DNA from: a plasmid
Sequence record: NZ_KX443399.1
DNA length: 64,000 bases
Reading direction: 5' to 3' (one strand)
Made by a program: the position numbers and the translations under genes. Of this stretch, positions 15,517 to 58,305 are shown piece after piece (the stretch's first letter is position 1; each line of letters starts with the position of its first letter). Below the pieces are notes generated by a model. That model worked only from the letters and a program-made list of their open reading frames with translations, ran no database searches and was not told the DNA's origin.

Positions 15517-15651
15517 ATCTCCTCCTGGGTGGGACGTGTCATCTGCGCTGGTCAATGGCCGTTTTCGATAGTTCGACGACGACGCCCCCGCTGCGGTGTT
15601 CCGGAGCGGGGGCGTCGGTCGAGATCCGGCGGGACGTGTCGTTTGTGCTGG

Positions 15652-27400: not shown

Positions 27401-27476
27401 CTGGACGCACTTCGTGCACCTGGCCCACGTGTTCGAGGCCCTGGACTCGCGCGCCACCCGCGGCGGTGCGGCATGA
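24429..27476 (+). CDS. VirB4/TrbE-like conjugative T4SS ATPase (1015 aa)
   Basis: Walker A VAVPGSGKTFLAGV; Walker B VLFLDENKYL; disordered Ala/Pro/Lys-rich N-terminus. Confidence 0.9.
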   Translation: MTMQSDNDIAALFDPNFDEPEPTVVPPGALPPSWAAAMAANRAASSPVAPAPALPQELAWSQAPDPASVPPVIAAAEAAEEPAGTGKRRKKKRGKQADPDAEFTRQAKAARKRRERERKAVSLELVGVEGNVTRTRRQSTAWFVQPPGPWNMRPVGKQRRYIQNEGLVVANLAEAGVTGLHRRLVRTPWPVRQWAQNHDAWAEPIPDVPGALSWADYLRGQQHAMLWGNPTQKGRYWGVELPPRSMLAQGLDWVGQWLVPVVDAPLLGTFAKLVQRWARDAFLNEQKAIADHLATIERHLSGQGVNAKPASAAQMDYLLLRSASLGLPLDADGVISGAGDWEESDVAALEDLTNLELTPGDGYTTVRGQVGGRDYTGYAIVLTVGRMAPLPIPEKMLPWQVIGDPSGEPLEWSERIKLKTKGQTLRSLRRLTDRIESQFDHYTVEHDQVPPQELAEQHALAQRAISDIEEDHSGLSVRTEGWYRVLVVGSTPEEAKEKVALLQEMYAPRIRLEHEHGQYQLLREFIPGEPLANIAHCRRMSVEALSAGMAAVGDRIGDRTGVVIGQTASIAPRPAVWDLFAAHEKKHKSGLTPIVAVPGSGKTFLAGVLVYQAVRAGAYGVVLDPSGPLKKLAQLPEFRGIAEVQALTGRTSRPGSLNPYRVIVDPRRDDPEYDPTSADYADDADPVAAAQSQYEADLRAAEAERISVAVSVLKMMLTPARLEHQWTETVLQTAANTVGGGRNHNLNEVLAAIASIGEGENETNADLISCARSIHQDLSMMSQLAEARVLFPGEGTVGDIPDAERNVRLTVLTMPGLQLPPEGTDPSQWTPQQRMAGPLMHMAAWLANRLVYELPRYERKVLFLDENKYLEQTGAGRTLNLRIARDSRKFKVRALVCSQLPDDYLGVDGTDDKSALTYEVIIGDLGGNAHAIEGALKLLNLPAGEGYEALLAGLGGGGEDTLDEDTDTEHLDQARRFIVKMADDIELIRSDWTHFVHLAHVFEALDSRATRGGAA

Positions 27477-29593: not shown

Positions 29594-30435
29594 TGTCGTC
29601 GTCCGGGCCCAATCCCGTTCTCGCGCCGATTCGCCGGTGGGTGCTCTACTCGCGCACCCACCTGGCGATCACGGTGGCCGGTGTCGTCGCGTTGCTGTTC
29701 GCTGCCGGGGCGGTCTTCGGGGAGACCCCGCCGCCCCGGGCGGCCGCGCACGAGGCCGACGCCGTCGCTGAGCCGGCCACGCCGGCGGATTCGATCAGCT
29801 ACGACCTCGACGAGGTCAGCGAATCGCTGGTCGTCGCGAAGTCCGCGGCGTGGGCAGCCGCGAGTGCGCCGGCCACCGCGATGGCCTATGCCCACGCGTT
29901 CGTCGACACCACCGCCTCGGACAGCAAGTGGGCCAGCGCGATCGGCCGCTACACCGTCAGCAAGCCGGGAGAGACGGTTATCGCGGCGCGGCCGCGGAAC
30001 CTTGTCGTCATCACCGGCCCGACGGTCAGCACTCTCACCGACGGCCCCAATGGCAAGACCGCGAAGGTGACCGTCCCGACGCAGGCCGGGGACATGCAGG
30101 TCTCCCTCACGGTGGAGGACGTCGCGGGCGGAAAGCGCTGGGTGGTAGGCACTCCCCTGCCGACGCTGGATCTGACCGAGGTCGCCAAGCTCGCCCCGGC
30201 CACGTCGACAGCAGCGCCGCGCACCACGGCGCCGTCGTCGACCACCACCACGGCACCGGAGACCTCGGCGCCGCGGACCACGACACCTGCCCCGTCGACC
30301 ACCGAGGGTCCGACTTTCGACCTCGACGAGCCGATGGATACCCCCGTCAAGCCGGGCAACACCTCGAATCCGACGCCAGTGCCCGGCCCGATTCCGATTC
30401 CCGAGCTCGACACCCCGCTGCCGGGGGCACGGTGA
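29593..30435 (+). CDS. membrane-anchored Thr/Pro-rich protein (280 aa)
   Basis: TM anchor LAITVAGVVALLFAAGAVF; T/P-rich C-terminus; overlaps neighbours. Confidence 0.65.
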   Translation: MSSSGPNPVLAPIRRWVLYSRTHLAITVAGVVALLFAAGAVFGETPPPRAAAHEADAVAEPATPADSISYDLDEVSESLVVAKSAAWAAASAPATAMAYAHAFVDTTASDSKWASAIGRYTVSKPGETVIAARPRNLVVITGPTVSTLTDGPNGKTAKVTVPTQAGDMQVSLTVEDVAGGKRWVVGTPLPTLDLTEVAKLAPATSTAAPRTTAPSSTTTTAPETSAPRTTTPAPSTTEGPTFDLDEPMDTPVKPGNTSNPTPVPGPIPIPELDTPLPGAR

Positions 30436-32000
30436 TCAGCGGCGGCGCCCGTCGGGCGCTGTTGCTGGCCGGCGCCGCCGCGATCGTCATCACGACTTCC
30501 GCGTGCTCGATCGGGGCGCCGGTCATCCCGAAGGACCCGTGCCGCAACATCCCCGGTGACGGCAGCAAGGCATCGAGTTCGATCGCCGACGACCTTCAGC
30601 TGGTCGCGTCCGGTCCGATCCGGCTGCCGGTCGATCAGGGGTCCACCACCTACACCTCGGGGTTCGGCGAGAGGTGGGGCGCTGCGCACCAGGGCGTCGA
30701 CCTCGCAGGTCCCGTCGGCACCAAGATCCTCGCCGCACTCGACGGCCGGGTCGTCGAATCCGGCCCGGCCAGCGGGTTCGGGAACTGGATCGTCATCGAC
30801 TCCAACGTCGACGGAAAGCCCGTCTCCACCGTCTATGGGCACATGTTCGACAACGGGCTGCGAGTGAAGGCCGGCGACGTCGTCAAGGCCGGTGACCACA
30901 TCGCCGACATCGGCAACAACGGTCAGTCCACCGGCGCGCACCTGCATTTCGAGTATTGGGAAGGTGGCCGGCTCCAGGGCGGCACCGCGATCGACCCGCT
31001 GGCGAAACTGCCGGACATCGCGCGCCAGTCCGGTGAAGGCGGCGGCGGCTTCGTCGACCCGAGCGCCGACAACATCCAGCTCGTGGCCGCCGCACGTTCG
31101 ACCGCGGACTGCTCCGGCTTCGGGTTGGCCGGCGGGGGCGAGCTGGCATTCGGCGCTGTGCCGGCGGAGTTCGAGCCGTGGCTTCGCCGTGCCGGCGGCG
31201 TCTGCCCGGAGATCGACTCCCCTCTACTCGCTGCGCAGCTCCAGCAGGAGAACAACTTCCGCTACGGCAAAGACGCACCGGTCTCCCCCTCCGGAGCCGG
31301 CGGGCCGGCGCAATTCATGCCCGGTGCCTGGGCAACCTGGGGCAAGGACTACGACGGCGACGGCAAGGCCGACATCACCTCGATCGGTGACGCCGTGATG
31401 TCGCAGGCCCACTTCATGTGCGCGCTCTACCAGGATGTTTCGTCGATCCCCGGCGACCCGATCGAGCTGACCCTGGCCGCCTACAACGCGGGCCCGGGCG
31501 CAGTCCAGATGCACCGCGGCGTCCCGCCCTACGGCGAGACGCAGAACTACGTGAAGAAGATCACCGCCGCCCGCGCGACGTTCACCAACCCGAACTCGCG
31601 CGGCCGGTTCATCCCCAACGCCGCAGGTGACAGCGGCCAGGTCGTCTCGGCTGCACGCGAATACCTCGGTACCCCCTACGTGTGGGGTGGCGGCGGAACC
31701 GCTGGACCTTCTGGCGGCGGCTTCGACTGCTCCGGTCTGACGAGCTACGCCGTCCACGCGGCCAGCGCCGGCAAGGTTTCACTCCCCCGCACCTCCGAGC
31801 AGCAGTGGAACGTCGGCGTCGAGATCCCGATCGACCAGGCCCAGCCGGGCGATCTCGTCTTCGGCGGTTGGGGCCCGAACGGTCCTGGCCACGTGGGGAT
31901 CTACTCCGGGGGCGGTCAGATGGTCCACGCACCCACCACCGGTGACGTGGTCAAGGAAGCCCCGCTCCAGGCCGGGATGAAGGCCCGCCGGGTGATGTAG
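30432..32000 (+). CDS. three-domain cell-wall hydrolase: M23 peptidase + lytic transglycosylase + NlpC/P60 (522 aa)
   Basis: M23 HQGVDLAG...GNWIVID...AHLHFEY; transglycosylase GPAQFMPGAW..LAAYNAGPGAV; NlpC/P60 YVWGGGG...FDCSGL...HVGIY. Confidence 0.9.
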   Translation: MISGGARRALLLAGAAAIVITTSACSIGAPVIPKDPCRNIPGDGSKASSSIADDLQLVASGPIRLPVDQGSTTYTSGFGERWGAAHQGVDLAGPVGTKILAALDGRVVESGPASGFGNWIVIDSNVDGKPVSTVYGHMFDNGLRVKAGDVVKAGDHIADIGNNGQSTGAHLHFEYWEGGRLQGGTAIDPLAKLPDIARQSGEGGGGFVDPSADNIQLVAAARSTADCSGFGLAGGGELAFGAVPAEFEPWLRRAGGVCPEIDSPLLAAQLQQENNFRYGKDAPVSPSGAGGPAQFMPGAWATWGKDYDGDGKADITSIGDAVMSQAHFMCALYQDVSSIPGDPIELTLAAYNAGPGAVQMHRGVPPYGETQNYVKKITAARATFTNPNSRGRFIPNAAGDSGQVVSAAREYLGTPYVWGGGGTAGPSGGGFDCSGLTSYAVHAASAGKVSLPRTSEQQWNVGVEIPIDQAQPGDLVFGGWGPNGPGHVGIYSGGGQMVHAPTTGDVVKEAPLQAGMKARRVM

Positions 32001-46366: not shown

Positions 46367-46405
46367 GAAAATCGCCGAAATGGGTGAACGTAAGGACCTG
46401 TGTCC
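46367..46405 (+). promoter_or_regulatory. Second copy of CCCCGTTGAGGAAAA... upstream element
   Basis: see 23608-23645. Confidence 0.35.
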
Positions 46406-46426
46406 CAACCGGTAATCGAGGTGCCC

Positions 46427-48415
46427 ATGCCAGTCAGACGTCCGAGGACCCGCCGAGCCGTCGCGCTGATCGCCACTGCGACAGTGGCCGGCGGGTGTGT
46501 CGCGCTCACCGCCCCCGCGATCGCGGGCGCGGCACCGACCAGCTGCACGGCGACGTTCAACCTGTTCATCCCCGGCACTTGGGAGACCAGTGAGGACGCC
46601 GATCCCAGCCAGCCGGTGGGCATGCTCAAACCCATCGCGGACGCACTGAAGGCCGAGCATGGTCGCGCAGCGGAGGTCTACACGCTGCCGTACATGGCCC
46701 GGGCATTCGACAACGGACACACCTACGCCGACAGCAAGGCCGATGCCCTCGAGCGGGCCGAGCAGGTGCTGTCGAAGGTCGCGAACTCCTGCCCGAGTAC
46801 GAAGTTCACGATCAACGGCTACTCACAAGGCGCCGACGCCGCCGGGGACCTCGCCTCAGCGATCGGCAACGGCAAGGGACCCGTCGAAGCCAGCCGCGTG
46901 CTCGCGGTCGGTCTGCTGGCCGATCCGGGGGCCGGAACGAAGGGCGCAGCGACTGTCGGGCCGCGTACCTCGGGCACCGGTATCGCCGATCCGCGGCCGC
47001 AGGGCATGGGCAAACTGTCCGGTCGCGTCGCGTCGATCTGCGACCCAGGCGATCTGTACTGCTCGATCGAGAAGGGATCGAGCCCGCTGCTCGGCTCGCT
47101 CGGCTCGATCCTGAGCAAGAGCCCCAGCACGCTCACCTCAGGTGAAACCGCCGGTGGCAACAGCCAACTCGCCAGCGCCCTGACCTCCGACTTCACCGGC
47201 GCCGACCTGCCGGCCCTCGGGTCGAACGTGGCCACCCTCGGACAGCAGCTGTCCGCCCCGGACGTCGACATCAAGCAGGTCGCGACGACCGCGTCGTCGA
47301 TCGCGAAGACCCTCGCGCCGCTGACGGACCTGCTCGACTCCGGCGCCGCGAACCCCGCGGCGAACGGCCAGCTCGCCGCCGCACCGGCCGGCACCGCGGA
47401 GCGCAACGCCTCCGAAGTCCTCACCAAGGCGCAGGAATCCGACCTCACCAGCGCACTCGACACCGCGACCAGACTCGCCAACACCGCCAACAAGCTCTCC
47501 GGCGGTGACCCGCTGCGGCTGCCGTCGACATCGCCGGAGGTCCAGACCCTGGCGAACGCCGCGAACTCACTCGGCGGCCAGATCGCGCCCGTCGCATCAA
47601 CCCCCGCCGACGCGCTCACCTCGGCCACCAGCGTGCTCTCGGTACTCAAGCCGACCGTGGTGGTCAACCAGATCCTCAACGTCACCACCGGTGTGACCTC
47701 GCTCGATATGCCCGGCATCCTGAACAACCTGAACCAGTTGCCGCAGAGGATCGTCGCCGCCGACGCCCGCGGTGCGCACCAGATCGCAGGAGAACTGAAC
47801 AACCAGTTCTCGCCGCTGGTGAAGATGGCCGCCGCTGTCGACCTGAAGTGGGTCTCGCAGGTGCTCGCGATCATCCCGGACCCGTCCGGCGCCACCCAGA
47901 TCGCGGCGCTCGTCGCGTCGATCCTGGCCAACGTTGACATCATCCGTCTGGCCAACATCGTCGGCGAGATCCAGGAGATTGCTTGGGCCGCAATCGAGAA
48001 GCTGGTACCCCCTCCCGGCCAGCTGCCCGACCCGCTCGGTGCCGCAGGCGAAATGGGTCGGCTGATCCCGGTCGGCGCGGACCTCGCGTCCGTGGCGGTG
48101 AACATGCTCTCGGGCAAGGCCACCAAGACCTCTCCGGAACTGCTGGGCAAGCAAGCAAAGTCCGTCTCGACCAGCATCACCACCCAGGCAGAGAGCCTGG
48201 ACCTGCCCAAGCTGTCGAACTCGCTGACCACCCTGGCCAAGTCCCCGGGCGCCGAAGACCTCGCGTCGCTGGTCAACGAAGGACTCGGCGCCGCAAGTTT
48301 CTTCACCTCCGGCGCCCACACCAACTACAACGACCTCGTCGTCGACAACGCCGGCCGCAACGCCATCCAGTGGCTCTCGGACTGGCTCAACCTTCAGATC
48401 GGACGTGCCGCATGA
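46427..48415 (+). CDS. secreted cutinase-like serine esterase domain fused to long Ala/Leu/Ser-rich C-terminal region (~662 aa)
   Basis: signal peptide; TINGYSQGA nucleophile elbow (cutinase GYSQG); alt. GTG start at ~46400. Confidence 0.75.
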   Translation: MPVRRPRTRRAVALIATATVAGGCVALTAPAIAGAAPTSCTATFNLFIPGTWETSEDADPSQPVGMLKPIADALKAEHGRAAEVYTLPYMARAFDNGHTYADSKADALERAEQVLSKVANSCPSTKFTINGYSQGADAAGDLASAIGNGKGPVEASRVLAVGLLADPGAGTKGAATVGPRTSGTGIADPRPQGMGKLSGRVASICDPGDLYCSIEKGSSPLLGSLGSILSKSPSTLTSGETAGGNSQLASALTSDFTGADLPALGSNVATLGQQLSAPDVDIKQVATTASSIAKTLAPLTDLLDSGAANPAANGQLAAAPAGTAERNASEVLTKAQESDLTSALDTATRLANTANKLSGGDPLRLPSTSPEVQTLANAANSLGGQIAPVASTPADALTSATSVLSVLKPTVVVNQILNVTTGVTSLDMPGILNNLNQLPQRIVAADARGAHQIAGELNNQFSPLVKMAAAVDLKWVSQVLAIIPDPSGATQIAALVASILANVDIIRLANIVGEIQEIAWAAIEKLVPPPGQLPDPLGAAGEMGRLIPVGADLASVAVNMLSGKATKTSPELLGKQAKSVSTSITTQAESLDLPKLSNSLTTLAKSPGAEDLASLVNEGLGAASFFTSGAHTNYNDLVVDNAGRNAIQWLSDWLNLQIGRAA

Positions 48416-48669
48416 GCCCCCGCGCCCACAACCCCACCGCTCGCTGGACCTCGTGCGAGAAATGCGGGCACCGCGGCTATCACACCCGCGGTGACGCAAA
48501 AGCTGTCCGCAAGCGTCATCACGGAGAGAAAGGGATGTCCGTGTTCCCCTGTCCCCACACCGAGGGCCTGTTCCACGTCGGCCACCGCCCAGAAGCACTG
48601 ACCAGCGGCGAAATCGACCGACACCTGCTCCGCAACCAGGCCGTGCAGGCACTAGCAGGGGAGTGGTGA
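48412..48669 (+). CDS. small Cys/His zinc-finger-like protein (85 aa)
   Basis: CEKCGHRGYH...CPHTEGLFH; ATGA overlap. Confidence 0.5.
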   Translation: MSPRAHNPTARWTSCEKCGHRGYHTRGDAKAVRKRHHGEKGMSVFPCPHTEGLFHVGHRPEALTSGEIDRHLLRNQAVQALAGEW

Positions 48670-49415
48670 TGAGCGTCTTCAAGCGAGGAACCCTGATCGC
48701 CGCGGTCGCGGCCCTGGTCCCCCTCGGTGTCGTCGTGGCCAACGAGACCACCTCGAATGGCCCCTCGTCTGCGCCGGTTCCGGCCGCGTCGTCGGCGAGT
48801 CTCGGCGATCCCGCGACTGCCGCACCCGATGTCGAGGAGCTGATCGCGCAGCTGACCGTCGTCGACGAACTGCCCAAGGTGCCCGGCTACGAACGTGATT
48901 GCACCAAGGACAAAGCCTGCGTCTACGGGCCCGCCTGGACCGACAACTACGTCGGCCGCGACTCGAGGAACGGCTGTGACACGAGGAACGATGTCCTCGG
49001 CCAGCAGCTCGTGAACGTCACGTTCAAGCCCGGAACCCGCGACTGCAAGGTCACCGGCGGCCTGCTGCACGACCCGTACACCGGCAAGAACATCGACTTC
49101 GACCCGAAGAAGCCGTCCGCTATCCAGATCGACCACGTGTTCCCACTCGCCCGTAGCTGGCGTGCCGGGGCGGCGAACTGGAGCATCGAGCAGCGCACCG
49201 CCTTCGCCAACGACACCGAACGCAACCTGCTCGCAGTCGACGGCCCCGCAAACCAGGCCAAGTCCGACAAGGGCCTCGACACCTGGATGCCGACGAACAC
49301 CGACTACCACTGCGACTACGCCCGCACCTACCTCAACGTCGCCGCCACCTACCACCTCGCGGTCACCCGCGGCGACGTCGAATCCGCCCGCAGTGCTTGC
49401 GCACTGGGGCAGTGA
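48663..49415 (+). CDS. secreted HNH-type nuclease (DUF1524/GmrSD C-terminal-like)
   Basis: signal peptide; GCDTRNDVL...IDHVFPLARSW...N motifs. Confidence 0.7.
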   Translation: MVMSVFKRGTLIAAVAALVPLGVVVANETTSNGPSSAPVPAASSASLGDPATAAPDVEELIAQLTVVDELPKVPGYERDCTKDKACVYGPAWTDNYVGRDSRNGCDTRNDVLGQQLVNVTFKPGTRDCKVTGGLLHDPYTGKNIDFDPKKPSAIQIDHVFPLARSWRAGAANWSIEQRTAFANDTERNLLAVDGPANQAKSDKGLDTWMPTNTDYHCDYARTYLNVAATYHLAVTRGDVESARSACALGQ

Positions 49416-49425
49416 GGAGATCACC

Positions 49426-50016
49426 GTGACAATGACGTTGAGCCCCGAAACCCTGGATCTGATCAGCTCCGGTTCCAAGTTGACTCGAAGTCAACGACGG
49501 GAGAACGAGGGCGTGAGGAAGAACATCCGGCGGCGGACGCTCCTCCGCCGCTACAGAAAACTCGATGAGTTGGACGTCCCGACGCGTCGTCAGATCGTCG
49601 AACGCTACGACAGCGCGACAACCGACAGACTCGATCCCGCCCAGAAGGCCGAGCTTGCGCACCTGATCGGCCGGATTCGAGGAGAAGTCAACCGTGGAAG
49701 CCGTTGGGTGTCGGTCGCCGGCAACGTGCTCTATGGCTGGATCATGGCCGTGGCATACCCCATGCTCGCGTTGGCTTTCGCCATGATCATCGACGGAGTG
49801 GCCAGCAGCAACGACGGACCCGAGGGATACACGCCAACAGGCGTAGCGCTCTTCGGCGCCGTCGCTATTTGTGGTCTGGCGTTCGTGGTCAGCCACTCAT
49901 TTGGCCGCGTCTTGGACGCGCGAATCAGCATCGCGTTCCGCGCTCACGCTCAAGCCCTTCTGACGCTGTGCGAGGCGAGTCCCCGAGTCGAGGAGGCGCC
50001 GGGATGGCTTCGCTGA
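49426..50016 (+). CDS. membrane protein (196 aa)
   Basis: GAGGAGATCACC RBS before GTG; 3 hydrophobic helices. Confidence 0.65.
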   Translation: MTMTLSPETLDLISSGSKLTRSQRRENEGVRKNIRRRTLLRRYRKLDELDVPTRRQIVERYDSATTDRLDPAQKAELAHLIGRIRGEVNRGSRWVSVAGNVLYGWIMAVAYPMLALAFAMIIDGVASSNDGPEGYTPTGVALFGAVAICGLAFVVSHSFGRVLDARISIAFRAHAQALLTLCEASPRVEEAPGWLR

Positions 50017-50213
50017 GCACGACGGAGTCACTGAGCGGAAGCGAACCGGCGCACAACGTGCTTCAGCTCCCGCTACAGGTGGCACCCGCGCACCTGACCT
50101 GCGACTGCGGCAGCGCGTGGTGGGACACGAGCGTGTGCATCGAGGACGGCAAGGTCACCGGGTACAGCGTGCCCGTGCGCTGCACCAGCTGCGGCCGCCA
50201 AGCCTCGACCTGA
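50004..50213 (+). CDS. small Cys-rich protein (69 aa)
   Basis: CDCGSAWWDTSVC...CTSCG; overlaps upstream stop. Confidence 0.45.
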   Translation: MASLSTTESLSGSEPAHNVLQLPLQVAPAHLTCDCGSAWWDTSVCIEDGKVTGYSVPVRCTSCGRQAST

Positions 50214-50282
50214 CCGAGCTCCGACAGACGGCCGGCGAAGGGCCGACCACCCCACGGTGGTCGGCCCTTCTGCTGTCTCGGG

Positions 50283-50444
50283 CTACCCGCCGGGCCAGAG
50301 GCTGACGAGATCCTGCAACCAGCTCACCCACGGAAGATGATTCACCGCCACGTCGACGACGATCTCGCCGACGACGTCGCGCACCACTTCCTTCGCGATG
50401 GCGCCCGCCTTCTCGGTCCTGCTCATTCCATCGTGATCCCGCAT
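50283..50444 (-). CDS. small hypothetical protein (53 aa)
   Basis: internal ATG with GGAGAACGC RBS; upstream part of track ORF is junk. Confidence 0.4.
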   Translation of the reverse strand: MRDHDGMSRTEKAGAIAKEVVRDVVGEIVVDVAVNHLPWVSWLQDLVSLWPGG

Positions 50445-50706
50445 GATGCGTTCTCCTCTGTGAAGGGGATCGCGGACCGCCACGGATCGCGACAGTCCTT
50501 CCCCCTCTTCTGGCGTGGGAGGGGAAAAAGCCCAGTGCGCCCCCGAAAATGAGCCACCTCGACGATTGCGCCGCGCCACCACCCGGTTGTCACTTAGCAA
50601 GCACAGCTTGTAAGGTGGACCCATTGGAAGCGATCTGCCCCGCAGTCCGCGGGTGCCGGCAGCAGGCCAGATCAGAAATGGCCGCGAGAAACAGGGGGTG
50701 AACAGG

Positions 50707-52974
50707 ATGAACGACACGTCCCGCGACGCAATCGTCCTCGCGCTGCCTCTGCGTTGGCCCGCTGACCGCGATGCCTTGGCGCGCACCCACATCGGTGGAG
50801 GGGACGTGTCGTCTTCCCAGTACGATGCCCCTATGTGTCGCTCGAAAGCTCACGGAACTGGCCGCCGCTGCCCCGGTTGTGGCAGCTACGGGGCCGCCGC
50901 GAAGGCCAACGCGAACCGCCGGCTCGGTCGCGAGGCCCGGAAGAAGGTCGTCGACCACCTCAAGGAACAGGGGCTGGTCGAGTCCGCCGCCGCCATCCAG
51001 GCGGCGCCGCCGAGCGTGCTCCAGGAGTTCATGGAAGGACTCGGCATCGACCCCGAGATCCTCGGCAAGACCCCGATGCCGAGCACCCACGCGAACCCGC
51101 CCAGCGCGAAACTACTGATCGCGCAGGCGAAAGCGGAGCGCGAGAAGCTGGCCGGCCCGAAGATCACCCCGGCCCAGGCCGCTCTCGATGAGGCCGAAGC
51201 GAACGCCGTCAAGGCTGACGCCGAGGCGGAGGAGGCAACCAAGACCGCCAAGAGGCTCCGGGCGCGGGTCACCACAGCCAAGCGGAAACTCAAGGAGGGC
51301 ACAGGCACCGAAGAGACCGTCGCGGAGAAGCAGAAGGACTTCGACGAGGCCAAGGCCGCCGCGTTCGACGCGCAGCGCCGCCAGTCCGAGGCCCACGACG
51401 ACCTCGCGGCCGCGAAGTTCGGCATGCGAGAGGACATGGCTGACGAAGACCGTGACGCCTACTACGCCTCGCTGTCCGACGACGACGTCGCCGCGATCAG
51501 CCGGTCCCTGAACCGCAAGTACGCGGACGAAGCAACCGAGGCGCTGGCCGAGGGGCCAATCGTCTCGCCGGCCGGAATCGAGCGCGACACCAGCGTCTAC
51601 AAGTCGGGGAAGATCCCGATGGAAACAGGATCGGGTGTCGAGGAGGCCGAGGGCCGCTACCTCGACGGCGGTACCGCGATCGTGCGCCGGGGGTCCGGGG
51701 ATTTCGTTGTCCTCCAGCGCAAGGGCGACGCCTACCACCCGGTGGCTGTAGCGAACGGTAAGCATGACGCCCTCGCCAAGGCCAACCGCATCCCGATCCT
51801 GGTTGAGCCCGAACCGCTGCCGGCCAACGCCACTGAGATGCAGAAGCAGGCGCACTCGGTGAAGGGAGATGCGCTTCTCGCGGTCGCCAGCGAAGCGGCA
51901 GCCGGCAAGGCGTCCACCACAGCCGCGCAGCAGAAGGTCATCAACGACGAGCTGGCCGGCGCGCACGAGAAGATGACCGACTCGATCGGCGCCGGCCCGG
52001 TCCGCGCCGACATCTACGACGGCACCAAGCGTCACCAGAAGCGCATGCGCGAGCTGGCCGCTGTGCAGGCCGGCGAGAAGGCCCGCGCCGACGCACTCGC
52101 GGCCGGCAAGACGAAGGTGCAGGCCGATCAGGCGTACGAGAGGGCCCACCGCCGCGCACTCGGCACACCGACCCGCGGCGGCGGCGTGATCCCGCACTTC
52201 GAGCACAAGATCCCGCCGGAGAGCCTGGGTGCCGAAAAGCACGCGTCCCTGCACCGCAGCGGTATCCGCGCGTTCGGCAAGGAAACCGCCGACGACTACG
52301 CGGTGATCCATCAGCGGGCCGGCGACCTGAAAGCGTGGGGATTCTCGGTCAGCGGGCAGAAGGTGCACACCTCCGACCTGTCGAAGCTGACGGCGACGAA
52401 CTCGGCATTCGTGAAGAAGGTGCTCGACTCTTCCGAGCGCAGCGCGCTGACGACCTACACCGGCGGCAGCTACCACTCGATCAACGCAGCGATCACCGGG
52501 CGCGATCCGAACCCGGCCGCGTCGACCAAGTCAATCGTCAGTGGCATCGAGTCGGCGTTCGACAAGTTCAACGAGCACAACCCGAACAACGAGCCGATGA
52601 CCGTCATGCGCGGCACCCGGGTGCCCAGTGGCTGGAAGGGCACCGCGGCCGAGTACATCGACCAGGCGTTCACCGTCGGCTCGAAGGTGCAGATCGGCAA
52701 AGTCACCTCCACGACGACCCGCCAGGCCACCGCGCAGGGCTTCACCGGGCACCCGCCGTACATGATGGTCATCCGCACCCGCAATGGCCTTCCGGTGAAG
52801 TCGATCTCGATGTACAAGAGCGAAGACGAGGTCATCGTCCCCACCGGCACCGAGCTGCGCTGCGTCAAGGTCGACCACAAGGGCATCAACGGAGTCCCGA
52901 CCGTGTGGCTCGTCGCCGAAGACCTGGTCGCCGAGGCCGACGGGTCCCCGTCGCCACTGAAGTCCGTCGCATAG
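50707..52974 (+). CDS. R-S-E class ADP-ribosyltransferase (C3/VIP2/SpvB-like ART domain) at C-terminus of large protein with N-terminal zinc-ribbon and long Ala/Glu/Lys-rich helical region; alt. start ~50833
   Basis: YTGGSYHSINAAITG (Y-x-x-x-x-Y-x-x-IN), MRGTRV (Arg), TSTTT (STS), SEDEVIVPTGTEL (E-x-E) in canonical order; CPGCGSYG near N-terminus. Confidence 0.8.
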   Translation: MNDTSRDAIVLALPLRWPADRDALARTHIGGGDVSSSQYDAPMCRSKAHGTGRRCPGCGSYGAAAKANANRRLGREARKKVVDHLKEQGLVESAAAIQAAPPSVLQEFMEGLGIDPEILGKTPMPSTHANPPSAKLLIAQAKAEREKLAGPKITPAQAALDEAEANAVKADAEAEEATKTAKRLRARVTTAKRKLKEGTGTEETVAEKQKDFDEAKAAAFDAQRRQSEAHDDLAAAKFGMREDMADEDRDAYYASLSDDDVAAISRSLNRKYADEATEALAEGPIVSPAGIERDTSVYKSGKIPMETGSGVEEAEGRYLDGGTAIVRRGSGDFVVLQRKGDAYHPVAVANGKHDALAKANRIPILVEPEPLPANATEMQKQAHSVKGDALLAVASEAAAGKASTTAAQQKVINDELAGAHEKMTDSIGAGPVRADIYDGTKRHQKRMRELAAVQAGEKARADALAAGKTKVQADQAYERAHRRALGTPTRGGGVIPHFEHKIPPESLGAEKHASLHRSGIRAFGKETADDYAVIHQRAGDLKAWGFSVSGQKVHTSDLSKLTATNSAFVKKVLDSSERSALTTYTGGSYHSINAAITGRDPNPAASTKSIVSGIESAFDKFNEHNPNNEPMTVMRGTRVPSGWKGTAAEYIDQAFTVGSKVQIGKVTSTTTRQATAQGFTGHPPYMMVIRTRNGLPVKSISMYKSEDEVIVPTGTELRCVKVDHKGINGVPTVWLVAEDLVAEADGSPSPLKSVA

Positions 52975-53034
52975 CCTGAAAAATGTACATCTAGCTGGGG
53001 ATACGACACGTCCCCTTATCGAGAGAAGGCCACC

Positions 53035-53208
53035 ATGAGCGGCAAACTGAGCCAGGACCAACTCGACGACATCCGTGCCCATCTCAAGCAGGGAATGTCG
53101 CCCAGGGAAGTCGCGGACTACTACGGCCGCGTCGCAGACCTCGACCTCATCGAGATCGCACGTATCCGCACTGCCGCATACGAAATCGAGCAAGAGGAGC
53201 AAGCGTGA
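53035..53208 (+). CDS. small Hin/resolvase-like HTH protein (57 aa)
   Basis: AGAAGG RBS; LSQDQLDDIRAHLKQGMSPREVADYYG; below track cutoff; 4-bp overlap with ARH gene. Confidence 0.5.
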   Translation: MSGKLSQDQLDDIRAHLKQGMSPREVADYYGRVADLDLIEIARIRTAAYEIEQEEQA

Positions 53209-54287
53209 CAGCACCGGCAACCAACGACGCCGCCCAGCGCGCCCGCTACGGCAACGCCCTGAGCGGTCTCGCGGCCGGTGACGCCTGGGGCTACCAAGTC
53301 GAGTTCACCTCGTACGCATCCATGCCGGCCTACCCCGTGGCCGCGCCGGCAGGGGAGTGGATCGTCAGCGACGACACCCAGATGACCCTCGCGCTGCACG
53401 ACGCGCTCGCCGAGGTCACCGACTTCGACGACATCCCCGCGGTCACCGACGCGATCGTCCGCCACTTCGTCCTATGGCAGGTCGACCCCGACAACAACCG
53501 GGCACCGGGTCGCGCGTGCATGGGCTCGCTGCACCGGCTGCGTGCCGGCGCCCGCTGGTACGACAAAGACGGCGCGCGTGAATCCGCCGGCTGCGGCGCC
53601 GTGATGCGTCTGGCACCAGCTGCTTTCGCGCCGGAACCGTACTGGCCCGGGCTGACCGCGCTCCAGGCCGTCATCACCCACAAGCACCCGCGCGCCATCG
53701 TGCCCGCGCTGCTGCTAGCCGACGCGATCCGGCACGCCCCCGACCGCGGCGGCCTGCTCCTCGAGCACGCCCTCGCCGAGGCCGACCGGATCTACGCAGG
53801 CACCAGCGACTGGCTGACCGATCCGTACCTCGCTGACGTCCTCGCCCCCTACCGAGGGGACGTGTCATCTGTACTGGTAGACGGCCTGAATGATGATGTC
53901 GTGGACCTACTGAACGTGGCCGCTGAGGCCCGGGACCGGCTCGACCAGCTTGACCCCGCCGACTTCGGTGACCCGTGTGCCGGCATCGGTCAGGGCTGGG
54001 AGTCCGCCAGCGCGATCGCTCTCGGCCTGCTGGCCGCGGACCTCGCGACGTCCCAGGGTGGAACAGACACAGCACCTTTGACCGGGCCCGAAGCGCTGGC
54101 GTGGGCGGCCACCAGCAACGGCGACTCCGATTCCATCGCGTGCATCGCCGGAGCGGTCATCGGCGCCGCGTACCCAGCGCCGGACTACTGGAGCCTGTCG
54201 GGCCTGACGCCTCGGTTCGAACCCCGCTACGCCACCGAGATCGCCGCGGCCGCCGGTCAACTGCCCGGGGCGTCGTCGGCAGAGTGA
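53205..54287 (+). CDS. ADP-ribosylglycohydrolase (ARH/DraG family)
   Basis: LAAGDAWGYQVEF... signature N-terminus, Asp-rich metal-site segments; contains an in-frame 25-bp motif copy (GDVSSVL). Confidence 0.85.
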   Translation: MTAPATNDAAQRARYGNALSGLAAGDAWGYQVEFTSYASMPAYPVAAPAGEWIVSDDTQMTLALHDALAEVTDFDDIPAVTDAIVRHFVLWQVDPDNNRAPGRACMGSLHRLRAGARWYDKDGARESAGCGAVMRLAPAAFAPEPYWPGLTALQAVITHKHPRAIVPALLLADAIRHAPDRGGLLLEHALAEADRIYAGTSDWLTDPYLADVLAPYRGDVSSVLVDGLNDDVVDLLNVAAEARDRLDQLDPADFGDPCAGIGQGWESASAIALGLLAADLATSQGGTDTAPLTGPEALAWAATSNGDSDSIACIAGAVIGAAYPAPDYWSLSGLTPRFEPRYATEIAAAAGQLPGASSAE

Positions 54288-54415
54288 TCGCAGGGGCACA
54301 CCCCGTAGGTGAAATGGGGCGTGAACTGCGACGATGACACGTCCCCCTTTCCTGAGATGGATAGGGAGGCGGCGAGATTCGTCGCAGGAGAACCACCCAC
54401 AGCAAGGGGGAGAAG

Positions 54416-54950
54416 ATGCAGCCGACATTCATGGGAACCATCGGCGCCGCGATGGTCATCGGAGGCGTCCTCGGGATCGTCTGGTCGCGGCGTACAGCAG
54501 ACAAGCGCAGCCGCGACGCGACCTACTTTGTCTACGCGTGGGCCTCGGTCGCCGTCTGGTTCGGCGCCCTGCCGATCATCGGCTCGATCGACGACGTCGC
54601 GGTCCTGCCGGCCAAGCTGCGCGACATCCTCTACGCCCTCGTGCTGATCGGCGGCCTAGCCGCGACCCTGTGGTTTGTCGCTGCGGGAATCCGGGCCCGC
54701 CGCAGTGAGTTCCGCGAACTCCAGCGCCGGTACACCGACGCAGGGCGCACACCGCCGCGGTACTTCTGGCGGCCCTGGGCCATCTTCAGCTGGACCCTCG
54801 GCCTGGGGTCGGTCGTCGTCATCGGCGGCGGCGTCGCGGGCGCTTCCCTCGTCGGGGCGCTGCTCGACAACGCGACCGCCGACGAGGTCGACCGGACCGC
54901 GCAGAACATCGCGAACCAAGGGCGACAAGGTCGACCTGATGAGCGACGAG
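54416..54950 (+). CDS. 4-TM membrane protein (3' end uncertain)
   Basis: clear TM helices to ~54930; open frame continues as Arg/Gly junk to 55237 overlapping relaxase gene. Confidence 0.55.
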
Positions 54951-57900
54951 GATGTCACCAAGTTCATCACCGAGCAGTACGCGAAGATGTGCCAACCGGT
55001 GGCCGGGTACGACCTGGTGTTCACGCCGGTGAAGTCGATCTCTCTGCTGTGGGGTCTCGGCGACGCCCAGGTGAAAGAGGCTGTCGAAGAGGCACACAAG
55101 CAGGCCGTCGACGAGGCCCTCGCGTGGATCGAGGACGAGGTGATCTACACCCGTCGCGGGGCCGGCGGCGCCCGCAAGGTCAAGGCCGAGGGGCTACTGA
55201 TCGTACGGTTCGACCACTTCGACAACCGTGTCGGTGATCCGAACCTGCACACCCATTCCGCGATCCTGAACCGGGTACTGGCAGAGGGAAAGTGGACGAC
55301 GATCGACGGCCAGGTGCTCAACAAGGCGAACGTTGCTGCGTCGGAGCGCTACAACACGCGCGTCGCCGATCTGGTCGCGCGCAAGCTCGGCGTCACCTTC
55401 GCCCCGCGCCCCGATACCGCCGTCGGCAAGCAGCCGGTGTACGAGGTCGAGAGCATCCCTGTCGGGCTGCTCGAGGAGTTCTCGCGGCGCGCCCAGATCG
55501 AGGATCGACAGGCCGAACTCGCACGCGAGTACAAGGACAAGTACGGCAAGAACCCGCCGAAGAAGGTGCAGTACGCGCAGGCGCAGCAGGCGACGCTGGA
55601 CACCAGGAACGCGAAGAACCCGCCACGGTCGTTGGCGGAGTTGCGCGCCGAGTGGCGCGAGCGCGCGTCCGCGATTCTCGCGGGCTCCGACCCCAGCACG
55701 CTGGTCGACGAGGTGCAGTCGGGTCGCGATCGGCGCCCTGCGTTCTACGCCCCGCAGCTACCTGCTCTCGTGCAGGAAGTGACCGACGATCTTTCGCGCA
55801 AGGTCGGTTCGTGGACCGTCTTCTCGCTGCAGGCGGAGATTCAGCGTCGGCTGCGAGAGTTCAGTTTCGCGGGCGAGATGGACGTCAACGAGTACGTCTC
55901 GGACGCGGTCGATCTCGCCGTCCGCGACTACTGCCTTCCTACCTTCACCGAGGTCTACGACGCACCGGAGAGTGTCAGCGAACGCGTCGAGCGTGGGCTG
56001 CGACGGATGGTCGATGTCGATCGGGCGGAGATGCGATACACCGCGCAGGCGGTGCTCGACGCCGAAGAGTTCATGCGTGACAACGCGGAGATCGACGACG
56101 AGCACACCGTCGCCGAACGCGTCATCCGCCGGCAGATCCGACGAGCGGAGAAGAAGGCCGGACACACCCTCGGATCCGACCAGATCGCGATGGTCGAGCA
56201 CTTCCTCACTGCGAGGAAGAAGGTCGCCGTCGCTGTCGGTGCGGCGGGGGCCGGCAAGACCACCGCGGCGACAGTGATCGCCCGCGCATGGGAAGACACC
56301 AACGGAAAGGTTGTCGCCCTCGGGCCGTCGGCCCGTGCCGCAGAAGTGCTCGGGGAGGAGATTTCCGTCGAAGGACGCACGATCGCGGATGTGCTCACCC
56401 GCGCCCGCGTCGGCATCCCGACCGGCATCGACAAAGGCGACCTTCTGCTCGTCGACGAAGCCGGCATGGCCTCTGCTCGCGACCTCGCGGACCTCACCCG
56501 CATCGCGACCGAAGCAGGCGCAGTCGTCCGCCTGCTCGGTGATCCCCAGCAGCTCGCCTCCGTCGAAGCTGGCGGTGTTCTGCGTGATCTGGCCGAACGC
56601 ACCGACGCCCCGTTCCTCGAACAGGTTCACCGGTTCAAGACCGAGGGCGAAGCCGAAGCCAGCCTGCTTCTGCGTTCCGGAGCCGACAACGCGCTCGACT
56701 GGTACGAGGGCCGTGACCGCATCCGTGACGGAATGCGGCACGAGCTGCCTGACATGGTTTTCGACGCGTACGTCGCCGACGTCGAGGCCGACAAGGTTGC
56801 CCTCATAGTCCCCCCGACGAACGACCTGGTCCGCGAACTCAACATCAAGGCCGCCGCGTACTACCGCGCCAACGGCACCGTCACCGGACCCAGCGTCGTT
56901 CTGGCGGACGGCCTCGAGGCCGCCGGCGGCGACGTCGTCGTCACCCGCAAGAACAACAGCAAGTACGTCGTGAAGGACGCCGACGGACAACGGGCCGGTC
57001 GCGTGAAGAACGGAGACCTGTGGACCGTCTCCGAGATCGGTGAAGACGGTTCACTACGCCTGCGGAACAACGTCTCCGACGGCGAGGTGACCGTCGCAGC
57101 CGACTACATCACCGACAACGTCCAACTCGGCTACGCAACGACGGTGCACCGGTCGCAGGGCATGACCGTCGGTAGCTGTCACGTTCTCGCGGCCGCAAAC
57201 ATGGACCGCCAGTCGCTGTACGTCGCGATGACTCGCGGCAAGAACACGAACATCGTCTACGCCGCCCACGATGAGCTACCCGACTGGGACTTCGAGCATC
57301 GACCGGACGAGCATCCGGCCGCGATCGACCTTCTTAACAAGATCGTCGCCCGCGACGGTTCGCAGCGAACCGTGCACCAGATGATCGAGGACGAGCAGCG
57401 GCAGGCCGCGTCGTGGGACCGACTGCGCAGCACCCGCAACCTCGCGGTCGGCGCGCTCTACGAGAACCTGACCGAGAACCTGCTCGGCGAGATCCTCACC
57501 GAACGCCAGTTCTCGTGGGTCCACCAGCTCGGCGGCTGGGACAAGATCGTCGAGATCGTCGCGCAGTCCGAAACCTTCGGTTGGGACTCGCGAGCGCTCT
57601 TGGCTGATGCTGCCGCGACGATGCGCGCCGCCGGAAAGGCGGGCGAGCTCGACAGCGAGAATCGCGCTCCGGGCCGCGTGATGGCCGAGGCCCTGCAGGC
57701 TGCGACGAGCCGGGAGAACTGCAGTCCCCTCCCCCACACTCGCACCGACGCGGTGGCCGGATACTCGGTGCCGGCCCTGAGCGAGGCTGCGGCCGAGACC
57801 GACCCGATCCTCGCCCCCTACGTCCGATCGCAACAGCAGCAGATGCACGCGTTCGTCGACGCGTACACGACCGCGGCCATCGCCGAGAACGCCGCATGGG

Positions 57901-58145
57901 TGACGGCAATGGGCGACCCAGGGACGGACTCGCGAAAGATCGCGATGTGGGAGAAGGCGGTGCGTGAGGTCGCGCTCTCCCGCGTCAAGAACTCCGCGCC
58001 GGCCGACGAAGCCGACCCCGTGGCGTACCTGGCCGAGGCGCGCGCCGAACAGATCACACGAGTGATCGACAGGGTGCAGTCCGCACCGGCTCGACGCTCC
58101 CCCCTACTCCGATCACACCGCTGCCGAACTCGCGGCCGCGCGTGA
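54939..58145 (+). CDS. traA: MobF/TrwC-family relaxase fused to TraA-like helicase
   Basis: 3-His motif HFDNRVGDPNLHTHSAILN; DLVFTPVKSISL; helicase Walker A GAAGAGKTT, Walker B LLLVDEAGM, VHRSQGMTV. Confidence 0.9.
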   Translation: MSDEDVTKFITEQYAKMCQPVAGYDLVFTPVKSISLLWGLGDAQVKEAVEEAHKQAVDEALAWIEDEVIYTRRGAGGARKVKAEGLLIVRFDHFDNRVGDPNLHTHSAILNRVLAEGKWTTIDGQVLNKANVAASERYNTRVADLVARKLGVTFAPRPDTAVGKQPVYEVESIPVGLLEEFSRRAQIEDRQAELAREYKDKYGKNPPKKVQYAQAQQATLDTRNAKNPPRSLAELRAEWRERASAILAGSDPSTLVDEVQSGRDRRPAFYAPQLPALVQEVTDDLSRKVGSWTVFSLQAEIQRRLREFSFAGEMDVNEYVSDAVDLAVRDYCLPTFTEVYDAPESVSERVERGLRRMVDVDRAEMRYTAQAVLDAEEFMRDNAEIDDEHTVAERVIRRQIRRAEKKAGHTLGSDQIAMVEHFLTARKKVAVAVGAAGAGKTTAATVIARAWEDTNGKVVALGPSARAAEVLGEEISVEGRTIADVLTRARVGIPTGIDKGDLLLVDEAGMASARDLADLTRIATEAGAVVRLLGDPQQLASVEAGGVLRDLAERTDAPFLEQVHRFKTEGEAEASLLLRSGADNALDWYEGRDRIRDGMRHELPDMVFDAYVADVEADKVALIVPPTNDLVRELNIKAAAYYRANGTVTGPSVVLADGLEAAGGDVVVTRKNNSKYVVKDADGQRAGRVKNGDLWTVSEIGEDGSLRLRNNVSDGEVTVAADYITDNVQLGYATTVHRSQGMTVGSCHVLAAANMDRQSLYVAMTRGKNTNIVYAAHDELPDWDFEHRPDEHPAAIDLLNKIVARDGSQRTVHQMIEDEQRQAASWDRLRSTRNLAVGALYENLTENLLGEILTERQFSWVHQLGGWDKIVEIVAQSETFGWDSRALLADAAATMRAAGKAGELDSENRAPGRVMAEALQAATSRENCSPLPHTRTDAVAGYSVPALSEAAAETDPILAPYVRSQQQQMHAFVDAYTTAAIAENAAWVTAMGDPGTDSRKIAMWEKAVREVALSRVKNSAPADEADPVAYLAEARAEQITRVIDRVQSAPARRSPLLRSHRCRTRGRA

Positions 58146-58305
58146 ATCGAGTAAGCGGTGAATCGGCGAGTCCCGGACCCTCATCGCTCTGGCGAAGCAG
58201 GAGCTCGACCGCGCACAGGGCAAGGATTCGGGCACCGCGGCCGCCGATCTCGCTGCTCGCAACCACGGGCTGACTATCCTTGCTCGAACACCAAAGAGGG
58301 CGGCG

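Follow-up and report, generated by a model that had tools for sequence, protein, structure and literature searches.

A predicted ADP-ribosyltransferase cassette with an acidic partner protein and an optional glycohydrolase in the backbone of pVAPN-type plasmids

We analyzed a 64,000-nucleotide stretch of plasmid DNA (NZ_KX443399.1; hereafter the window) that carries a cassette of three genes encoding a predicted ADP-ribosyltransferase (ART), a 57-residue acidic protein, and a predicted ADP-ribosylglycohydrolase (ARH) (table 1). Bases 50000–58200 of the window match the linear virulence plasmid pVAPN03-56 of Prescottella (Rhodococcus) equi and a sister record over their full length with 99.9% identity, and pVAPN1572 with 99.5% identity. 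pVAPN has been described as a conjugative replicon, invertron-like and of pNSL1 type, to which the vap island was added later (PMC5434932), and the ART cassette is part of the pNSL1-type housekeeping backbone outside that pathogenicity island. The gene content is already annotated, the RefSeq labels of the three genes being "ADP-ribosyltransferase," "hypothetical protein," and "ADP-ribosylglycohydrolase family protein"; our literature search returned no paper naming both pVAPN and "ADP-ribosyltransferase." An earlier note on this DNA had described the locus as an ART fusion protein followed by a small helix–turn–helix (HTH) gene and an ARH gene on an element with a type IV secretion system (T4SS). 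The T4SS assignment is borne out by a T4SS-like transfer module of the Gram-positive type at 24429–32000 and, on the minus strand, 20118–22274 of the window, which encodes a VirB4-like AAA_10 ATPase (1015 aa; 24429–27476), a 706-aa protein without a Pfam match, a triple cell-wall hydrolase with M23, SLT, and NlpC/P60 domains (716 aa), and an FtsK/SpoIIIE-type translocase (20118–22274).

Table 1. Features of the cassette and its flanks (window coordinates; residue numbers refer to the 713-aa ART protein).
Feature	Position	Strand	Remarks
Forward motif copy (gAAA..TGAAC..GACACGTCCC)	50688..50722	+	~110 nt upstream of ART start; contains ATG 50707
Reverse motif copy	50801..50835	-	Distal end overlaps ART start codon
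ART protein, 713 aa	50833..52974	+	N-terminal module, helical/beta scaffold, C-terminal ADP-ribosyltransferase domain
N-terminal ~90-aa basic module	50833..51105	+	MCRS..GRRCPGCG..NRRLGRxARKKVV..APPS; common to other cargo domains
Predicted R-S-ExE ART catalytic domain	52390..52947	+	Pfam, ExoT alignment, Foldseek
Predicted catalytic codons	R593 52609-52611; S626 52708-52710; E664 52822-52824; E666 52828-52830	+	713-aa numbering
Forward motif copy	52980..53014	+	Core ends 20 nt before small-gene start, ribosome-binding site between
57-aa acidic partner	53035..53208	+	Isoelectric point 4.6, net charge -5; most constant ART neighbor
Predicted ADP-ribosylglycohydrolase, DraG/ARH1/Tri1-like	53205..54287	+	PF03747; translationally coupled to small gene
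Antisense motif copy inside ARH reading frame	53857..53891	-	Peptide YRGDVSSVLVDG
Forward motif copy	54311..54345	+	Upstream of membrane-protein gene
Predicted membrane protein gene, conserved backbone	54416..54916	+	Hydrophobic segments seen by eye; 3' end apparently replaced by imported block
5'-truncated MobF/TraA relaxase-helicase	54939..58145	+	Imported from pVAPA/B-type plasmid; outside module

Proteins of the cassette

The C-terminal region of the ART protein matches two families in a Pfam scan that returned no others, PF03496 (38.7 bits, cut-off 23.4; E = 8e-10) and PF01129 (29.7 bits, cut-off 22.3; E = 5e-7). The earlier note had claimed a complete R-S-E domain and named PF03496 as its check; the claim holds, given a score above the curated threshold, the presence of YTGGSYHSIN, MRGTRV, TSTT, and EDEV in the order described, and the alignment of the Arg, Ser, and Glu-x-Glu residues in the profile search. 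Across 24 aligned homologs R593, S626, and E664 are invariant and E666 is nearly so (R653, S686, E724, and E726 in the 773-aa numbering). The best solved relatives found with a profile of these 24 sequences are ExoT and ExoS, and the RG, TS-T, and E-D-E motifs of the ART align to FRGT, STS, and E-Q-E of ExoT. An AlphaFold (AF2) model, with a predicted local distance difference test score (pLDDT) of 80 and a predicted template modeling (pTM) score of 0.67, matches ExoS (2.6e-6), Listeria 8za7_B (template modeling score of 0.72), Tre1 (6drh_B), Plx2a, C3, VIP2, and CDTa at a Foldseek probability of 1.00. The best PHROG family is that of the Alt-like RNA polymerase ADP-ribosyltransferases (E = 1.8e-7), with a match that extends over ~75 residues. 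These comparisons identify the cytoplasmic protein as a predicted, catalytically intact R-S-ExE mono-ADP-ribosyltransferase of the ExoS/T–Tre1–C3/VIP2 structural class. ARTs of the ExE type modify arginine and DraG-like hydrolases strip Arg-linked ADP-ribose, whereas the DNA-targeting ART relatives Scabin and SCO5461 have Q-x-E (PMC8120803). From the ExE motif, the pairing with an ARH, and this family knowledge, we infer that arginine is the acceptor of the pVAPN enzyme.

The remainder of the protein differs from its earlier description. The open frame spans 50653–52974 on the plus strand and had been assigned a product of 755–773 aa; we place the start at ATG 50833, which is also the RefSeq start, because most homologs begin with MCRS..GRRCP, residues 1–60 of the long reading frame are modeled with a pLDDT of ~30, and the proposed ATG 50707 falls within a copy of the repeated DNA motif discussed below. 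The extra 42–60 N-terminal residues are kept in very close relatives only, and the "GDVSS" conserved there is the translated DNA motif. An N-terminal zinc ribbon is not sustained by an alignment of 52 diverse members, in which C2 and C13 are the only invariant cysteines. The region described as a ~400-aa coiled coil is instead composed of a helical hairpin, a five-strand beta domain (residues 316–367), and more helices, and it holds an almost invariant GTPTRGGGVIPHFxHKIPP segment. In total, ~520 aa of the protein are conserved noncatalytic sequence. No Pfam, NCBIfam, or PADLOC model matches outside the ART domain, so no known secretion adaptor (PAAR, Rhs, or LXG) is recognized there; a WXG/LXG feature was neither seen by inspection nor found in the Pfam scan, and no signal peptide is evident. 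The PADLOC defense models likewise matched none of the ART, the small protein, the ARH, the membrane protein, and the upstream open reading frame (ORF).

The gene for the small protein adjoins the ART gene in 26 of 30 loci with a full-length ART, which represent Rhodococcus, Nocardia, Aldersonia, Mycobacterium, and Mycolicibacterium. The acidity of the protein is a family trait: the isoelectric point is 4.1–4.6 in 24 of 25 distinct homologs, the exception being a distal paralog (5.1), and the net charge ranges from -2 to -10. Its designation as an HTH regulator is therefore doubtful, given that the HTH-like matches are subthreshold (DUF433, E = 0.029, 14.6 bits against a cut-off of 23.6; the HTH family PHROG 517, E = 0.0013) and that a strongly acidic protein is unlikely to bind DNA. 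Its charge, opposite to that of the first 45 residues of the N-terminal module (+9), is more in keeping with a partner that binds protein, and we consider it more likely to serve as a chaperone or to inhibit the ART than to regulate genes by binding DNA; gene order across these loci marks it as a predicted obligate companion of the ART.

The third gene was correctly recognized as an ARH/DraG-family hydrolase gene that overlaps the second: its product scores well above the PF03747 threshold (128.8 bits, cut-off 26.2; E = 4e-37), and the TGA of the small gene and the GTG start of the ARH share the sequence GTGA. The solved structures matched are DraG (1.7e-11), ARH1 (4e-7), Tri1 (8e-5), and Lmo0067 (1e-3). 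The motifs VEF, SDDT, and GDSDS align to VEF, TDDT, and GDADT of DraG, and DraG D97 has no assignable counterpart; the score against the DraG equivalog model TIGR02662 is 41.6 bits, compared with a cut-off of 337. The ARH core begins at approximately residue 13 and residue 16 aligns to Tri1 residue 73, so the protein appears to lack an N-terminal extension comparable to that with which Tri1 occludes the ART active site. Given an R-S-ExE ART and a DraG/ARH1/Tri1-like ARH with metal-binding motifs, reversal of Arg-ADP-ribosylation would be the natural function of the pairing, and from family knowledge (PMC8120803) we infer that the ARH erases the mark made by the ART.

Homologs of the pVAPN ARH also occur as orphans in phages of Gordonia, Mycobacterium, and Rhodococcus (35–48% identity; PHROG 22100, E = 2e-66). 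In these 27 phage records there is no ART nearby and each ARH gene follows a small Cys-rich ORF, as in prophiFSIL01-1 (gp84; locus L043, 5031–6053) and Gordonia phage Aleemily (gp114; locus L044, 3977–4999). We examined the small ORFs as possible kin of the 57-aa protein and rejected them, since they are Cys-rich and unrelated. The phage ARHs may counter ADP-ribosylation by the host or by a rival.

A shared N-terminal module and the distribution of the cassette

The first ~90 residues of the ART protein form a basic module (net charge of +9 in the first 45 aa) with the family-wide pattern MCR..GGRRCPxC..N-RRR-NR..PPS. The module is modeled with a pLDDT of 86, and neither a structural analog in the PDB nor a Pfam match was found for it. 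A profile of the module was searched against 1.84 billion representative proteins, a library whose matches carry no taxonomy, and found 112 proteins of 57–1876 aa, nearly all of which are matched at or close to their N-terminus; we took the longest (1876 aa), a eukaryote-like MIF4G protein with a weak internal match, to be a false positive. Pfam domains assigned to the 87 of the 112 proteins that were scanned show that the module precedes a variety of cargoes: ART in 14 proteins; PI3/PI4-kinase-like domains in 10, each below the Pfam gathering score; Peptidase_M78, DUF6782, WhiB, and Fam20C-like domains in two each; and Mrr_cat, ArdC-N, MPTase-PolyVal, and RNase_T domains once each. When the module by itself was used in a word-index homology search, only fragments were retrieved, and a scan of IMG/VR found no relative encoded there.

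In five of six genomic contexts the module genes lie beside genes for conjugative transfer or for plasmid ESX (type VII secretion) systems. One is downstream of genes for a VirB4-like AAA_10 ATPase and a HerA-like ATPase, with an orphan methylase close by (locus L042); others are downstream of AAA_10 and CHAP hydrolase genes (L045/46) or of an M23 hydrolase gene (L047), and those in L049 and L004 are immediately upstream of eccA-eccB-eccC, the former also adjoining an AcrVA2-like gene. Among plasmids in PLSDB, the module is found on 31 (26 from Rhodococcus, including pNSL1 and pRHL1, three from Prescottella, and two from M. avium), and in each of these records that is annotated the gene it heads is that of the ART. 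Among the cargoes are other likely conflict effectors (kinase-like, M78 peptidase, WhiB-like, ArdC-N/MPTase, and Mrr nuclease). These contexts and the variety of cargoes suggest that the module is probably a shared adaptor that links varied enzymatic cargoes to one partner, for which the transfer apparatus, the DNA being transferred, and a shared host complex are candidates.

Mycobacterial ESX-bearing plasmids encode a second module protein 1–2 kb downstream of the ART and directly before eccA-eccB-eccC (L004, 11184–11954; also L018–L024, L029, and L030). We read its C-terminus as WhiB-like based on its Cys pattern and weak PHROG matches to WhiB; no Pfam match was obtained at E ≤ 0.01. In L049 (10001–11152) the module is triplicated and followed by a C-terminus that looks WhiB-like, and genes for an AcrVA2-like protein and a RES toxin are located nearby.

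The whole-length ART family comprises 87 clusters; all of those with a named source are from Mycobacteriales and many are labeled as plasmid. ART orthologs are common on plasmids of soil Rhodococcus, Nocardia, and Mycolicibacterium, and no family member is present among 50,697 phage records. We compared gene order in 36 related genome loci and one M. avium-type plasmid contig (loci are labeled with L-numbers). In this sample the ART and the small protein constitute the conserved core of the cassette across Rhodococcus, Nocardia, and Mycobacterium plasmids. An ARH gene follows the small gene only in Rhodococcus/Prescottella and Dietzia, and that of Aldersonia is divergent and located upstream. 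Eleven Mycobacterium/Mycolicibacterium loci, together with two similar loci from metagenome-assembled Actinomycetota, encode no ARH within 10 kb of the ART, and the ARTs of the ARH-less mycobacterial loci keep all catalytic residues. A distal ARH fragment was seen in L035.

Several neighboring features were noted in the course of this comparison. Mycobacterial plasmids encode a second ART paralog (~42% identity over residues 207–703) that has neither the module nor a small partner gene (L034–L039, e.g., L039, 9824–11551; on the same contigs as L018, L020, L022, L023, and L030), and its context, which includes an IS605 transposase and an S8 paralog, is uninformative. A transposon insertion at bp 58,700 of pRAW raised transfer of that plasmid (PMC4173767). 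We considered that the insertion might lie upstream of an ART ortholog and rejected this, because pRAW 54–72 kb has no homolog of the ART, the small gene, or the module. Upstream of the pVAPN ART gene are genes for a 671-aa cutinase-domain protein (46400–48415) and an HNH/GmrSD_C nuclease (48663–49415); the former is kept in Rhodococcus and some Nocardia relatives and the latter in only some relatives. The presence of such a cutinase-like esterase within a transfer backbone is reminiscent of LysB, the mycobacteriophage enzyme that cleaves mycolyl-arabinogalactan links.

A repeated DNA motif and the downstream junction

The cassette is embedded in a series of copies of an asymmetric ~35-nt motif with the consensus (g)AAA-n7-8-TGAcCnG-n6-7-A(t/c)GACACGTCCCC. 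The window contains 24 copies between positions 2052 and 54345 (e.g., 2343–2377 and 15531–15565 on the minus strand and that before the small gene on the plus strand), and 91 unique instances are obtained when relatives are included; the motif is also kept in related plasmids of Rhodococcus, Nocardia, and Mycobacterium. With one mismatch allowed, the core occurs 23 times compared with 5.5 times expected, and none of 100 shuffles reaches 23. Because the core ends 14–31 nt upstream of start codons, with a ribosome-binding site between, and its orientation is that of the gene, the motif, a plasmid-wide element, behaves like the promoter or operator of a plasmid regulon. By our own count, the spacing between TGACC and CGTC is 13 nt, which fits neither the sigma-70 nor the extracytoplasmic function (ECF) sigma factor consensus. 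Scans of 50100–55000 for sigma-70 promoters and intrinsic terminators found none, and an Rfam search of 50000–55000 at E ≤ 0.1 found no match.

All five motif positions listed in the earlier note were recovered, with cores at 50713 (+), 50801–50810 (-), 53005 (+), 53857–53866 (-), and 54336 (+). Two statements attached to them fare less well. The copies had been called the only reverse-oriented ones, but orientation follows the genes, which are on the minus strand at 2–40 kb and on the plus strand at this locus. The dedicated regulation that they were taken to imply is doubtful for a plasmid-wide motif with this number of copies. The truly odd copies are the two that are antisense to local genes, that at the ART start and that inside the ARH ORF.

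Conservation varies among the copies, and several placements recur in different genera. The forward copy upstream of the ART occupies the same position in L007 and is not found in L005, L006, and L013, and the forward copy before the small gene, a placement kept in Rhodococcus, is found at the same position in six related loci. The core of the reverse copy is 23 nt from the ART ATG in four Rhodococcus and two Nocardia loci, and in Mycobacterium, Mycolicibacterium, and other Nocardia loci a reverse copy is located 92–784 nt, mostly <280 nt, upstream of the ART. The inverted pair at the ART 5' end has an unremarkable predicted RNA fold (z = -1.77), and its first arm is probably upstream of any transcript start. 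A minus-strand ORF at 50283–50444 was considered as the target of the reverse copy and was rejected, since it has no homolog in any related locus.

The antisense core inside the ARH ORF is found at the same place in eight related loci, where it overlies rare codons, GTA and TCA/TCT, that are themselves conserved; the Dietzia and Aldersonia ARHs have neither the peptide YRGDVSSVLVDG nor the motif. The conserved rare codons and the absence from Dietzia and Aldersonia argue for selection on this copy at the DNA level. The site of the antisense copy is within the ARH ORF in Rhodococcus and directly 3' of the small gene in Mycobacterium.

Homologs of the membrane protein gene follow the ARH in six related loci. 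Similarity to them covers aa 1–167 of the 175-aa query and ends at approximately nt 54917. From 54916, which corresponds to a position 460 nt inside pVAPA mobF, the DNA is 96–97% identical to pVAPA/B, the equine and porcine virulence plasmids, which have the MobF block in common with pVAPN and lack the ART. MobF thus begins at a recombination junction (54916/54917) that apparently cut the preceding membrane gene. pVAPN MobF corresponds to pVAPA TraA from residue 162 on (98% aa identity over residues 162–420), and it is matched by the TrwC profile from position 70 of 286 on, whereas pVAPA TraA matches positions 1–285. Since TrwC positions 1–69 are missing, the N-terminal segment with the catalytic tyrosine is absent and the protein is probably not a functional nickase. 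No homolog of pVAPN MobF is encoded within 10 kb of the ART in any of the 36 related loci. The earlier note had set weight on the location of the cassette next to the relaxase; the adjacency is real, but as a functional clue it does not stand, given that the relaxase gene is a 5'-truncated import.

Interpretation and comparison with known systems

On balance, we lean toward the interpretation that the locus is a plasmid-backbone effector/antidote cassette that favors plasmid establishment or competition. The ART would probably transfer ADP-ribose to arginine residue(s) of at least one bacterial protein, and this modification of host-cell proteins would favor the plasmid; the ARH would erase the mark, protecting or resetting plasmid-carrying cells, and would act as an optional enzymatic safeguard. 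We posit a bacterial target because the cytoplasmic antidote, the distribution in soil bacteria, and the location in the backbone point that way. The modular N-terminus, the conjugation contexts, the ArdC-N and MPTase cargoes, and the Alt-like PHROG match suggest the logic of an "early effector" known from conjugative elements and phages (PMC5512222), and delivery of the ART into recipients is plausible.

Several observations weigh against this interpretation. The lack of a nearby ARH gene at every Mycobacterium/Mycolicibacterium locus complicates a model in which the ARH provides immunity; at these loci the ART is either not self-toxic or neutralized otherwise, for instance by the small protein or a distal ARH. 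Three versions of the protein (P0072, P0073, and P0075; 443–491 aa; from R. pyridinivorans, R. jostii, and R. opacus) keep the N-terminal ~440 residues and have no ART domain. Unless these versions are products of decay, they indicate that the scaffold may serve a role by itself. The assignments of PI3/PI4-kinase-like cargo are all subthreshold, and the sixth module context (L041) looks chromosomal rather than conjugative. Finally, nucleic acids are the substrate of some R-S-E ARTs.

A bolder interpretation joins the module to the transfer process. The module would be an unrecognized delivery or targeting adaptor of conjugative elements in mycolic-acid and related actinobacteria that couples swappable effectors to the transfer machinery or the incoming DNA; the ART would enter the recipient, the donor copy being held inert by the 57-aa protein as chaperone, and the plasmid-encoded ARH would then erase the mark. 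We advance this combination tentatively and consider it unlikely to hold in full.

We weighed four further explanations and rank them in the order addiction module, Tre1-like interbacterial toxin, DraT/DraG-like switch, and mammalian-host toxin. An addiction module, in which a stable ART toxin is countered by a labile small protein and/or the ARH, would arrest plasmid-free cells and stabilize large linear plasmids. ART–ARH pairs have been described as toxin–antitoxin systems (PMC9503650, PMC8120803), and the genetics would suit one: the three genes are tightly linked, the small gene and the ARH are coupled and have a motif copy of their own upstream, the cassette belongs to the backbone set of low-copy Rhodococcus (mega)plasmids, and the antisense copies of the motif are directed into the genes for the ART and the small protein, as is the case for antisense-controlled toxins. 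However, a toxin of 713 aa with so large a conserved noncatalytic part would be atypical, its module is common to cargoes that are not toxins (WhiB-like and ArdC-N), the toxin gene comes first, the ARH is dispensable on mycobacterial plasmids, and PADLOC and NCBIfam give no toxin–antitoxin or defense family at the cassette; we therefore consider this explanation doubtful, on a par with the delivery adaptor. Those nontoxin cargoes also speak against a Tre1/Tri1-like interbacterial toxin, which would be exported through the type VII secretion system (T7SS)/ESX or through the conjugation channel without DNA while the ARH or the small protein shields sister cells. The structural matches of the ART to Tre1 (6drh/6dre) and to the ART of the Listeria effector–immunity pair 8za7, those of the ARH to Tri1 and Lmo0067, and a layout like that of polymorphic toxins, with a constant N-terminus and variable C-terminal cargo, are consistent with such a toxin, as is the position of the mycobacterial-plasmid gene 2–4 kb upstream of eccA-eccB-eccC. 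Yet ESX genes are neither annotated nor detected in the examined part of pVAPN and none are found in the Rhodococcus relatives, the ART protein has no WXG/LXG feature by inspection or in the Pfam scan, the ARH appears to be devoid of the occluding extension of Tri1, and many members have no immunity ARH within 10 kb. We judge a toxin of this kind to be improbable.

Much of the family has an intact writer and no eraser, which is also difficult to reconcile with an endogenous reversible switch of the DraT/DraG kind, in which the ART and the ARH would toggle a plasmid or host protein in the same cell, for example, a factor for transfer, replication, or telomeres. Writer and eraser are co-encoded here, the promoter-like motif of the eraser and its internal antisense copy would allow differential expression, the cassette lies inside a plasmid-wide motif regulon, and DraG is the closest solved relative of the ARH. 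Nonetheless, the ART falls outside the DraT family, Pfam having returned PF03496 and PF01129 only, and the presence of the module on unrelated cargoes points to a theme of delivery or targeting rather than to one regulatory pair; a switch seems to us marginally less probable than an interbacterial toxin. Least probable by far is that R. equi uses an ExoS/C3-like ART on macrophage proteins as a virulence factor for its mammalian host. The best structural matches are indeed toxins that target eukaryotes (ExoS/T, C3, VIP2, and CDTa), and the gene lies ~8 kb from the vap island; however, the cassette belongs to the pNSL1-type backbone and not to the island, its orthologs are common on the plasmids of soil bacteria listed above, pVAPA/B have only the MobF block in common with pVAPN and lack the ART, the protein has no evident signal peptide, and an antidote ARH located in the cytoplasm implies that the target is bacterial.

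Protein effectors that accompany or serve conjugative plasmids have received much attention in Proteobacteria and, to our knowledge, hardly any in mycobacteria, rhodococci, and nocardiae. The cassette is found on plasmids of clinical and veterinary relevance (R. equi pVAPN and the ESX plasmids of M. avium) and on the large linear plasmids with catabolic functions in Rhodococcus. Should the ART condition recipient or host cells, it would offer a handle on plasmid establishment and persistence, and the sequence of the module would serve as a simple tag by which to find all the effectors of conjugative elements in actinobacteria. Plasmids with and without the ARH form a natural series suited to the study of self-protection against an Arg-ADP-ribosylating enzyme. 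The family also offers a conserved small acidic partner, and its analysis corrects an apparent linkage to the pVAPN relaxase.

The systems that the cassette most resembles differ from it in instructive ways. Tre1/Tri1 of the Serratia proteamaculans type VI secretion system (T6SS) and the Listeria monocytogenes pair 8za7 likewise combine an R-S-E ExE ART in cis with a DraG-like hydrolase (PMC8120803). Unlike Tre1, the pVAPN ART has no PAAR or T6SS delivery domain and carries a ~520-aa module-headed scaffold instead; its ARH gene is not directly downstream, the 57-aa gene being interposed; the ARH appears not to have the occluding extension of Tri1; the mycobacterial family members have no ARH within 10 kb; and the cassette is encoded in the plasmid backbone of mycolic-acid bacteria. 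With the nitrogenase switch DraT/DraG the cassette shares the joint encoding of a writer and an eraser of Arg-ADP-ribose. It differs in that the ART falls outside the DraT family, a nif context is lacking (no nif genes were found on the plasmid), and only part of the family has the eraser.

Phage T4 Alt is an ART that is injected with DNA and modifies the host RNA polymerase. Like the pVAPN protein, it is ~680–710 aa long and combines a long noncatalytic N-terminal part with an R-S-E ART on a mobile element, and the entry of an effector together with the DNA (PMC5512222) is what we also consider for pVAPN. However, the PHROG match is confined to ~75 residues, the pVAPN family is found on plasmids and not in phages, and a cognate eraser is co-encoded. 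Conjugative elements are also known to carry polyvalent or early effectors (ART, MPTase, ArdC-N, and nucleases) in or beside conjugation loci, for which action in the recipient has been proposed (Iyer et al. 2017, PMC5512222). Two hallmark domains of these proteins, ArdC-N and MPTase-PolyVal, also occur behind the pVAPN-type module. Polyvalent proteins of conjugative elements combine two or more effector domains in one polypeptide, and their ARTs are assigned to the H-Y-D (Tox-ART-HYD2) clade (PMC5512222), whereas the pVAPN protein has R-S-ExE and a single catalytic domain, so an R-S-ExE ART in this role would be a departure. The term "Zn-ribbon" is absent from the text of PMC5512222, in which it was looked for as a term and not as a domain.

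An analogy of another kind is provided by VirE2 and VirE1 of Agrobacterium. VirE2 is an effector translocated by a T4SS and VirE1 is its small acidic chaperone, an arrangement that pVAPN, an element of conjugation type, resembles in that the gene for a small, strongly acidic protein adjoins that for a large effector with a basic head. The two systems are unrelated in sequence and structure and differ in gene order; in pVAPN, binding of the ART by the small protein would be the putative counterpart.

The pairing of an ART with an ARH is thus itself already known from Tre1/Tri1, Listeria 8za7, DraT/DraG, and the ART–ARG toxin–antitoxin pairs of phages (PMC9503650). What is new here is a plasmid family that extends across Mycobacteriales and has a ~520-aa conserved scaffold, a shared module with swappable cargo, a predicted obligate acidic partner, an optional eraser, and an embedded regulon motif with conserved antisense copies.

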